This document shows, one piece after another, positions 49,100 to 49,370 of a DNA stretch of 64,000 bases (position 1 is the stretch's first letter; every line of letters starts with the position of its first letter). Made by a program: the position numbers and the translations under genes. A model generated the notes under the pieces. It was given only the letters and a program-made list of their open reading frames with translations, was not told where the DNA came from and searched no databases. The DNA comes from an uncultured Candidatus Saccharibacteria bacterium (GTDB taxonomy: Bacteria; Patescibacteriota; Doudnabacteria; UBA920): positions 3,914 through 67,913 of the forward strand of contig CAZQZS010000002.1 of NCBI GenBank assembly GCA_964597895.1. The letters run 5' to 3'.

Positions 49100-49173
49100 G
49101 CGGGCTTCGTATAATGGTAGTACAGCGGTCTCCAAAACCGCTTGCGTAGGTTCGATTCCTACAGCCCGTGCCA
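49100..49173 (+). tRNA. tRNA-Trp(CCA)
   Basis: GCGGGCT acceptor (G1·U72), anticodon loop CTCCAAA, T-arm GTAGGTTCGATTCCTAC, CCA encoded. Confidence 0.8.
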
Positions 49174-49174
49174 T

Positions 49175-49207
49175 GAAAAGAACACCAGAAATTCTGGTGT
49201 TCTTTTC
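49175..49207 (+). terminator. hairpin terminator immediately after tRNA-Trp
   Basis: 'gaaaagaacaccag aaatt ctggtgttcttttc'. Confidence 0.55.
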
Positions 49208-49351
49208 ATTGTATGATGCAGGAATCGAACGGGTTGAAGTGAGGCAAGGTTTGCTCTGCAGAGAAAGCCGAAGACGAACGATCACGAAACTGCCACTGGC
49301 AGTTTCGTGCAACCCAGTACAACGAAGCCGTCAGTAGACGGCTGAGGCGAA

Positions 49352-49370
49352 ATTCCTACAGCCCGTGCCA
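49352..49370 (+). repeat. exact 19-nt direct repeat of the tRNA-Trp 3' end (ATTCCTACAGCCCGTGCCA; first copy 49155..49173); att-like scar
   Basis: Identical 19-mer in direct orientation 178 nt downstream; the second copy lacks the 5' half of the T-stem, so it is not a tRNA. Confidence 0.7.

Follow-up and report, generated by a model that had tools for sequence, protein, structure and literature searches.

A structured, ORF-less element at the 3' ends of tRNA genes in Patescibacteria and its possible origin as a short insertion unit

Introduction

In a 64,000-nt stretch of DNA from an uncultured member of the Patescibacteria (hereafter the window), the last 19 nucleotides of a tRNA-Trp gene recur 178 bp downstream in direct orientation, which raises the question of how the second copy came to be there. 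An earlier model reading, made from the letters alone (the sequence-only reading), took the two copies for attL/attR-like ends of a tyrosine-integrase-mediated insertion that was later deleted down to a remnant, or alternatively for a tRNA-derived miniature element. A repeat reaching from the T-loop to the CCA end is reportedly the typical identity block of integrative elements that target tRNA genes. In the literature searched, no description was found of an element such as the one reported here; the nearest topic is the group I introns carried by the tRNA genes of Patescibacteria, a phylum rich in tRNA introns, and these introns sit in the anticodon loop (PMC13011429).

Results

The 19-nt repeat at the tRNA-Trp gene

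The sequence ATTCCTACAGCCCGTGCCA occurs in two exact copies in the window, both on the + strand and both where the sequence-only reading had placed them (Table 1). A search that allowed up to three mismatches gave no third match in the 64 kb, with 0.02 matches expected by chance; the 19-mer is thus not a common sequence within the window. The first copy comprises the last three bases of the T-loop, the 3' strand of the T-stem, the 3' strand of the acceptor stem, G73 and CCA. The identity between the copies is exactly 19 nt long, stopping on the left between positions 57 and 58 (G57 versus A57) and on the right at the CCA. No tRNA or tmRNA was called at the second copy by ARAGORN or Rfam, in agreement with the earlier statement that it is not a tRNA. 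Both copies were also found, in identical sequence, in a separate Logan assembly (L004, ERR2586217), so that the repeat is no assembly artefact. The genes at this locus are rpsB, tsf, a gene for a TPR protein, tRNA-Thr, tRNA-Tyr, tRNA-Thr, rpmG (encoding L33) and tRNA-Trp, and the same or nearly the same L33 was found on metagenome-assembled contigs of Patescibacteria that are labelled Saccharibacteria, Doudnabacteria or UBA926.

The 178 bp between the two 19-mers contain an 18-bp perfect hairpin (hairpin A), a 14-nt stretch complementary to the tRNA and a 13-bp perfect hairpin. Hairpin A, which the sequence-only reading had correctly seen as a hairpin 3' of tRNA-Trp, begins with the A of the CCA and resembles a terminator; a simple terminator scan did not call it. 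Homologues of this type of hairpin are found after tRNA-Trp in L001, L095 and L111, and in L008 one comes after the second repeat. The inverted copy of the T-loop decamer, GGAATCGAAC, is present as had been claimed, at 49221-49230 rather than at 49220-49229, and the second hairpin is perfect as described, with arms of 13 nt rather than 11 bp.

Table 1. Coordinates of the features at the tRNA-Trp locus of the window
Feature	Position	Strand	Remarks
tRNA-Trp	49100-49173	+	anticodon CCA; intact, CCA encoded; ARAGORN; Rfam tRNA, 64 bits
First 19-mer	49155-49173	+	tRNA-Trp positions 58-76
Hairpin A	49173-49209	+	18-bp perfect inverted repeat (A-tract / stem / U-rich), terminator-like; arms of 18 nt each, 49173-49190 and 49192-49209
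5' motif M, guide-like	49217-49230 (versus 49150-49163)	+	reverse complement of tRNA positions 53-66, 13/14 bases
Element X	49218-49370	+	153-nt conserved structured unit; 5' end from alignment and model, not a mapped RNA end
P1	49221-49227 with 49348-49349 and 49352-49356		2-nt bulge at 49350-49351
P2	49231-49236 with 49310-49315
HP1	49248-49269
HP2	49283-49309		arms 49283-49295 and 49297-49309
HP3 arm	49323-49346		tandem G.A pairs
Free 3' tail of X	49357/49360-49370		about 11-14 nt
Second 19-mer	49352-49370	+	3' end of element X; first 5 bases pair with the 5' motif
Terminator C (intrinsic)	49372-49396	+	orthologous to the terminator directly 3' of tRNA-Trp in L007, L006, L016 and L020, which lack X

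A conserved element ends in the second 19-mer

Comparison with related genomes showed that most of the interior, together with the second 19-mer, forms one conserved unit of 153 nt, which we call element X. The whole unit behind the tRNA consists of a hairpin directly after the CCA, a short spacer and X; it is about 200 bp long and carries no ORF. Complementarity between the two ends of X is limited to the 5' motif and the tRNA-derived 3' copy, where helix P1 arises from the pairing of motif M with the beginning of the second 19-mer. The sequence-only reading had allowed that the downstream copy might instead belong to a conserved functional RNA, and in effect this is the picture obtained, the second 19-mer being the 3' end of X and pairing with its 5' motif.

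When metagenomes were scanned with 20 nt taken from the conserved 5' portion of X (GAATCGAACGGGTTGAAGTG), eight loci were returned, and all eight are copies of X. At tRNA-Trp, X with an exact 19-nt repeat was found in UBA926-type genomes (L008, L085, L087, L089 and L103), and the Trp copies that came from the scan are identical to the one in L008. The element also lies directly 3' of tRNA-Gly(GCC), in L086, which belongs to a GC-richer lineage, and in L088/L090, and 3' of tRNA-Glu(CUC) in L091. A further copy, L092, has a Glu-type tail on a 2.3-kb contig that carries no tRNA, with none in the 1.5 kb upstream; its tail is perfect and a possible upstream 19-mer is degenerate (11/19), pointing to a tail kept by selection and hence to a function of its own for X. 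The window holds a single X, so that the proposed search for further copies of a MITE-like segment gave none within its 64 kb; the 52-kb contig of a relative carries two, one at tRNA-Trp (L089) and one at tRNA-Glu (L091).

The five tRNA-adjacent versions, which include L103 as a near-identical variant of L008, share a set of rules. In all five, X has the orientation of the adjacent tRNA and ends in exactly the 19 nt with which that tRNA ends (A58 to CCA), the identity never extending farther to the left. The start of the 5' motif is 43-54 nt beyond the tRNA, and the unit measures 197-211 nt from CCA to CCA. Of the 14 nt that end in GAAC, 11-13 are complementary to tRNA positions 53-66, among them tRNA-specific bases in the Trp copies and in L086. 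All tRNAs flanking copies of X are intact. The six distinct X sequences known to us were all found by a pattern lying within the 5' motif and containing GGAATCGAAC, which is common to all copies; the invariance of this motif is therefore partly a matter of ascertainment. Covariance model R1, which was built from the alignment of X and scores 163.9 bits on the X of the window, recovered one new copy, in a UBA926-type genome (L103; L104 and L106 are of the same lineage), and no further one elsewhere in the window or among the approximately 60 related loci searched. Further tRNA-Trp loci reached through homologues of the neighbouring protein yielded L103 and several remnants and no new type of X.

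Fold and covariation

The six distinct sequences (153-156 nt) were aligned and folded with RNAalifold, which gave six helical segments, namely P1, P2, a short helix bearing HP1, and the hairpins HP1, HP2 and HP3. In P1, the partner of the 5' motif GGAAUCG is CG-(2-nt bulge)-AAUUCC, where the 19-mer begins; P2 joins GGGUUG to CAACCC, and tandem G.A pairs close HP3. In the consensus fold, the tRNA-specific tail with its CCA remains unpaired over about 11-14 nt. The minimum free energy fold of positions 49174-49400 contains P1, P2 and all three hairpins.

The consensus fold has 49 pairs, in which 94.9% of the cells are standard pairs and 28 of which show double-sided changes. None of 500 shuffled controls reached the observed values, and controls with slid partners gave 2-6 such pairs. 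P1 and P2 are invariant, partly because the search pattern lies there, and these two helices thus rest on thermodynamics and partial covariation. The bases just 5' of GGAAU covary in part with the type of tRNA. Between the X of the window and that of L008, the single-stranded linkers are identical, and compensatory changes are seen in all three hairpins; the fold is kept across lineages of 52 to 64% GC. G.U pairs outnumber A.C pairs by 8 to 3, and this excess, together with the shared orientation of X and tRNA, favours the tRNA-sense strand as the one that folds, which fits an RNA and a folded single-stranded DNA alike. A tRNA-like fold was considered as well, since ACGGGUU pairs with the Trp acceptor strand in the single-sequence fold of the window; this is not a family feature, as the 5' partner is invariant and such an acceptor-like pairing is impossible with Gly or Glu tails.

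Empty, truncated and decayed sites

The region downstream of tRNA-Trp was compared in about 20 close relatives, and its gene content was found to vary among them. In L007, L006, L016 and L020, tRNA-Trp is followed directly by the terminator AAATCGCC..GGCGGTTTTTTGTTA, and in L007 a homologue of the gene for a 168-aa protein of the window (p168) comes directly after it, with no intervening unit. The order in the window is tRNA-Trp, hairpin A, X, 19-mer, terminator C and p168. Terminator C and p168 thus follow the second 19-mer in the window and tRNA-Trp itself in L007, so that the window carries a clean extra segment of 197 bp bounded by the repeat. The comparison of this downstream region, which the sequence-only reading had proposed, hence bears out an insertion-type difference at the 3' end of tRNA-Trp, with L007 as the empty site. 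For each locus, the choice between insertion and deletion rests on parsimony, and such empty sites would equally result if the two 19-nt repeats recombined.

In the UBA926 genome L008, the exact 19-nt repeats are 200 nt apart, and the interior aligns with that of the window from AGGAATCGAAC to the CCA. Other relatives (L005, L009, L010, L014, L015, L018 and L022), as well as the distal part of L008, contain only the hairpin, the spacer and GAATCGAAC, joined to TGGTGTATAAT and followed by differing genes. Many relatives keep such a truncated 5' remnant of X with a length of 11 nt; it is 18 nt long in L091 and 24 nt in L095-L100. In L001-L003 and L111-L114, a segment of approximately 100 nt (segment Y) with a degenerate 5' motif stands at the position of X, and L001 also has a degenerate second repeat, AAGCCGTGCCA. 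The X model did not recognise segment Y in L001 or L111-L114 even with filters off, and Y could be a decayed copy of X or a different element.

Some loci carry units in series. L008 and L103 have the order tRNA, hairpin B, X, 19-mer, hairpin A, 11-nt remnant and TGGTGTATAAT, and loci of the L009 type have tRNA, hairpin, motif remnant and TGGTGTATAAT, L008 thus showing one additional, tRNA-proximal unit. As the hairpin after the second repeat of L008 resembles the hairpin that follows the tRNA at L009-type loci, the extra unit of L008 sits between the tRNA and its former flank. Beyond X, L088 and L086 show the 19-mer, an A-type hairpin and a remnant of the spacer, and L091 shows an 88-nt near-perfect repeat of the 19-mer, the hairpin, the spacer and the first 18 nt of X. 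Intact units are tRNA-proximal and truncated older units distal. Since the duplication in L091 spans 88 nt and not 19 nt, tandem duplication or gap repair fits better than a fixed staggered cut.

The relationships among the cores of X, taken without the 5' motif and the tail, do not follow the type of tRNA. The core of the window (Trp) has an identity of 0.74 to that of L091 (Glu) and of 0.69 to that of L008 (Trp), and the core of L088 (Gly) has an identity of 0.75 to L091 (Glu) and of 0.55 to L086 (Gly). Because the cores are not grouped by tRNA type, the tail must have been exchanged relative to the core, and the two have had different histories.

Searches for related families and linked proteins

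No Rfam 15 family covers X; hits were at chance level, both on the window (gathering thresholds and E<=10) and on L086, L088 and L092 (E<=5). A Pfam scan of the approximately 40 larger ORFs of the window gave no integrase, transposase, reverse transcriptase or RNA-guided nuclease, and none of these enzymes was seen among the ORFs beside X at other loci, which were read by eye and not scanned with Pfam. The search for an integrase that the sequence-only reading had recommended hence came back negative for the window ORFs scanned and for the ORFs read at related loci. Neither X nor the Trp 19-mer was found in the IMG/VR viral contigs, phage records and plasmids searched, including by BLAST, and these searches gave no free, circular or viral form of X; an origin from a phage or plasmid was rejected on these grounds. 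A lone Gly 19-mer in the viral contig L094 falls within a primase/helicase-like ORF, as a chance match might.

Several identities were rejected. The sequence GGAAUCGAACGGG in X resembles the 5' region of tmRNA, but ARAGORN called no tmRNA, and the tails of X follow the neighbouring tRNA and not tRNA-Ala. An intron in the T-loop does not apply, the tRNA being complete and no group I core being detected. No gene is consistently adjacent to X at the loci compared. In relatives, LAGLIDADG ORFs were noted next to clusters of tRNA genes. A 188-aa ORF lies near X in the window and in L088, yet it also occurs at loci that lack X, and the 168-aa downstream ORF is very widespread and highly conserved, with no assigned function, and occurs independently of the presence of X. 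The AlphaFold model of the 168-aa protein has a pLDDT of 53, which is too low for use. No convincing promoter for X was seen.

Discussion

A family of insertion units at tRNA 3' ends

The reading that we prefer, at about even confidence, is that the repeat in the window brackets one member of an undescribed family of ORF-less insertion units of approximately 200 bp at the 3' ends of tRNA genes in Patescibacteria. X can be classified under the broader kind of insertion elements that target tRNA 3' ends. The remnant of an integrase island that the sequence-only reading put first is not supported, its interior being a conserved and covarying 153-nt element found at three tRNA genes, and the tRNA-derived miniature element which that reading gave as its alternative comes close to the evidence.

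Under the insertion-unit reading, X would be mobile, with a life cycle of the homing type, and would be moved by a factor encoded elsewhere. Its targets would be tRNA genes with the T-loop GTTCGATTCC, of which positions 58-76 would be duplicated on insertion. The 5' motif matches tRNA positions 53-66 as one unbroken complement running over the boundary of the repeat, which makes it the obvious candidate for target recognition by base-pairing; by analogy with the internal guide of an intron or with a bridge or guide RNA, it may be the internal guide by which the element is brought into register with the T-arm over the 57/58 junction. With both 19-mers derived from the target, the element could change from one tRNA to another without breaking the gene, and similar cores at different intact tRNAs would thereby be explained; an integrase element that switches tRNA would be expected to leave chimeric tRNAs, since it supplies its own tRNA end. 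On insertion, the tRNA would be kept whole, and its original terminator would be displaced behind the second copy. New units would enter beside the tRNA and push older ones outward, where these would become truncated. Group II introns are reported to be absent from Patescibacteria, which disfavours a retro-mobility route (PMC13011429).

Alternative explanations

A less probable but serious alternative takes X for a resident gene of a small RNA in which the tRNA-identical 3' tail carries the function and which spread to several tRNA loci by duplication, with no dedicated mobility. X could work with RNase P in the manner of a natural external guide sequence, it could serve some factor recognising the 3' ends of tRNAs as guide or decoy, or it could be a spare 3' end, and in this last variant the 5' motif could align the tail next to a slot complementary to ...GUUCG57 and so permit a trans-splicing-like repair of tRNAs cleaved in the T-loop. 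In the modelled fold, P1 would stack like a T-stem and present a free 3' acceptor strand with NCCA. The complex fold, the invariant junction strands and the tandem G.A pairs are typical for functional RNAs, and the preference for G.U over A.C on the tRNA-sense strand, the constant co-orientation of X with the tRNA and the strong terminator after it point in the same direction. So do the unbroken complement of tRNA 53-66 over the 57/58 junction, the intact X of the window as compared with the unrecognisable segment at the same position in L111-L114, and the perfect tail of L092, next to a decayed 19-mer-like stretch and with no tRNA in the 1.5 kb upstream. A resident gene is harder to reconcile with the patchy distribution of X, which is absent, truncated or decayed in most close relatives, and with cores that do not track the identity of the tRNA. 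Moreover, X has no conserved neighbour gene, no convincing promoter and no partner for its tail inside X, and the acceptor-like pairing of the window fold is impossible with Gly or Glu tails. The insertion-unit and resident-RNA readings are not exclusive, as a mobile element with a structured RNA as its active form would satisfy both.

The classical scar, in which a tyrosine-integrase island in tRNA-Trp left attL and attR and shrank to 178 bp, or to a remnant like a CIME, with X as the former attP arm region, appears improbable to us and is the least supported of the three. It would account for the direct repeat from T-loop to CCA, which is typical for integrative elements that target tRNAs, for the differing gene content downstream of tRNA-Trp among relatives, and for serial units at one tRNA, which recall tandem accretion at att sites. 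It would not lead one to expect an interior that belongs to a family with 28 covarying pairs and a constant length of 197-211 nt at three tRNAs, nor compensatory changes in stems, which arm sites bound by a protein leave unexplained. Similar cores occur at different intact tRNAs with no chimeric tRNAs, neither the scanned ORFs of the window nor those read next to X elsewhere showed an integrase, and the viral contigs searched carry neither X nor the Trp 19-mer. That the flank 3' of the tRNA was locally duplicated in tandem, with no function, or that the repeat reflects chance or faulty assembly, is very improbable; the 88-nt near-perfect duplication in L091 could indeed have arisen by slippage or unequal crossing-over, but the chance expectation is 0.02, independent assemblies agree, the fold is conserved across lineages and a single architecture recurs at three tRNAs.

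Comparison with known systems

Like CIMEs and integrative elements that target tRNAs, X shows a direct repeat of the tRNA 3' end, a tRNA regenerated with a new terminator, repeated use of one site with older units outward, and a patchy occurrence among relatives. It differs from them in its size of approximately 200 bp, in lacking an ORF, in its covarying multi-helix interior and in having related cores at different tRNAs, whereas one lineage of integrase islands keeps one tRNA target; in addition, no nearby integrase or attP-bearing parent was found. With MITEs, X shares a small size, the absence of an ORF and flanking direct repeats that can be read as a target duplication; as to copies per genome, one relative has two on a 52-kb contig, and the 64 kb of the window have one. 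Unlike MITEs, it lacks the usual terminal inverted repeats, occupies a specific position at tRNAs, has an apparently low copy number and came with no transposase that could be found; its 19-bp duplication is much longer than the typical target duplications of DDE enzymes, and the conservation of its junction sequences speaks for a single strand that folds.

The guide of a group I intron pairs with both sides of a junction, as the 5' motif of X could do with positions 53-57 and 58-66 (compare P1/P10), a likeness in logic only, and group I introns also show a pattern of invasion, decay and loss. In contrast to these introns, X leaves the tRNA uninterrupted, is too small and duplicates exon sequence; the pair at the junction is G57 with C and not a U.G, and no match to Intron_gpI was obtained at E<=10. 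Like guide RNAs that home mobile elements to tRNA genes, such as the delocalised crRNA of type V-K CAST and the TnpB omega-RNA with its scaffold and 3' guide, X joins a structured scaffold of approximately 130-150 nt to a short 3' segment that matches the adjacent tRNA gene and is encoded beside the attachment site, which is a likeness only. Unlike these systems, X has no gene for Cas12k, TnpB or a transposase in the window or beside it at the loci examined, shows no repeat or tracr features, carries no cargo other than the element itself and is flanked by unrelated genes.

As in attP(+) of CTX-phi and attC of integrons, a stem of X (P1) reproduces the target duplex, extrahelical bases lie at the junction, and the stems keep their structure more than their sequence. 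The two-junction, five-helix fold with invariant single-stranded linkers is far more elaborate than those sites, and a link to Xer or IntI would be conjectural. The external guide sequences of RNase P resemble X in having a free 3' acceptor strand with NCCA beside a helix that can stack like a T-stem; to our knowledge, they were devised as an experimental tool, and we know of no natural gene family of this kind. In the window, no target for the tail of X was found other than the tRNA's own 5' strand.

Significance

On the most conservative reading, X is a well-supported new family of structured RNA or DNA that is absent from Rfam, and short repeats of tRNA 3' ends in such genomes should not automatically be taken for scars of prophages or islands. 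If the insertion-unit reading is correct, approximately 200 bases and a folded nucleic acid suffice to lodge at tRNA genes, with the tRNA preserved through duplication of its last 19 bases. The element would then apparently switch between tRNA species, which is not readily done by integrases whose target is specified by a protein and which points to target recognition through base-pairing with the T-arm. Turnover of this kind would help to explain the variable regions behind tRNA genes in the gene-poor Patescibacteria. If targeting is indeed directed by base-pairing, elements at other T-loops would be expected to carry a matching motif, for example GGAUUCGAAC beside tRNAs with GUUCGAAUCC, and such targeting would be relevant to programmable insertion.

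A more speculative proposal, which we regard as rather unlikely, is that X is an RNA working through two tRNA-derived ends, with the 5' motif docking as an internal guide on the T-arm across position 57/58 and the free tail offering a ready-made tRNA 3' end. Such an RNA might be part of a programmable insertion system, RNA-guided or ribozyme-assisted, that could retarget itself to any tRNA with the T-loop GUUCGAUUCC, or it might act in trans as a spare-part ribozyme or guide that restores or processes cognate tRNAs damaged at the 3' end; in either case, the genome-reduced Patescibacteria would harbour a tRNA-directed RNA of a new class.

Elsewhere in the window, a tRNA-Glu gene (14629-14703, minus strand) has no X at its locus, and after its terminator stands AAGAGGAAT...CGTGTC, which is similar to the truncated second unit of L091.

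Apparent left border of the variable region behind tRNA-Trp

In L005, L008, L009, L010, L014, L015, L018 and L022, relatives that carry a truncated 5' remnant of X (in L008, in the distal part of the locus), a hairpin, a spacer, GAATCGAAC and TGGTGTATAAT form a conserved block approximately 45-65 nt 3' of tRNA-Trp, and TGGTGTATAAT appears promoter-like in its resemblance to a -10 element. The gene that follows GAATCGAAC and TGGTGTATAAT differs from species to species. Since a conserved block is thus followed by differing genes, the junction within the X 5' motif, the stretch complementary to tRNA positions 53-66, looks like a left border that stays fixed while the gene content behind tRNA-Trp varies. 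A copper-handling cluster lies a few kb downstream of this region in the window; some relatives have this cluster and others are without it.

The gene immediately downstream of X in the window encodes a 168-aa protein with more than 8000 homologues, spread over Patescibacteria and some other phyla, including matches labelled Omnitrophota. Identity was 71-89% in the best 120 of these homologues and 100% within its own cluster. Searches of Pfam, NCBIfam and PDB with this protein gave no match in any of the three, and an AlphaFold model, with 21 sequences as input, was poor (pLDDT 53). This uncharacterized protein is strikingly conserved.

In other genomes the position of X is occupied by a different segment of approximately 100 nt, designated Y (L001 3325-3420; L111 5870-5990; also L112-L114), in which a hairpin and ATAG(C/T)G..GCCG accompany the degenerate motif GAGAATGGAAG. 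The hairpin arms are not the same in L001 and L111, and the X covariance model did not recognize Y. Y is thus a decayed copy of X or else belongs to another family of small elements.

Between tRNA-Glu of the window and the Shedu gene just downstream, AAGAGGAAT (14573-14565) and CGTGTC (14556-14551) are similar to the second X unit, a truncated one, that L091 has at its orthologous tRNA-Glu locus; they are a possible old remnant of X.

Surroundings of X in relatives and other features of the window

In the X-bearing relatives L089, L103 and L088, free-standing LAGLIDADG-type ORFs are placed among tRNA genes; the equivalent spot in the window holds an unrelated, uncharacterized 170-aa ORF. The sole X copy without an adjoining tRNA (L092, 1-2333) has, on one side, an ORF similar to a DNA cytosine methyltransferase and a possible partner nuclease ORF and, on the other side, two small ORFs similar to a BrnT/BrnA toxin-antitoxin pair (all putative, from ORF translations read by eye), surroundings that seem island-like.

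Elsewhere in the window, two adenylate-kinase-family genes are adjacent in tandem. A perfect inverted repeat inside the 157-nt spacer from tRNA-Thr(UGU) to rpmG may provide L33 with a leader or processing structure. The RNase P RNA has a low score and a length that fit the reduced form of this RNA in the phylum.

Coordinates of features in the window and in related loci
Feature	Location	Position	Strand	Remarks
Shedu SduA_C-domain gene	window	12743-13999	-	anti-phage defence
tRNA-Glu	window	14629-14703	-	
Adenylate-kinase-family genes	window	30097-30678; 30682-31329	+	
170-aa ORF	window	47865-48377	-	
Inverted repeat	window	48801-48813 / 48841-48853		13 bp
168-aa protein gene	window	49412-49918	+	
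Copper-handling cluster	window	51542-54367	+	CsoR-type repressor, DUF305 protein, P-type ATPase
RNase P RNA, bacterial class A	window	55989-56313	-	118 bits (threshold 100); 325 nt
Hairpin-spacer-GAATCGAAC-TGGTGTATAAT block	L008	3537-3560		
LAGLIDADG-type ORF	L089	10484-11275	-	
LAGLIDADG-type ORF	L103	2728-3519	-	Pfam LAGLIDADG_3
LAGLIDADG-type ORF	L088	599-1276	-
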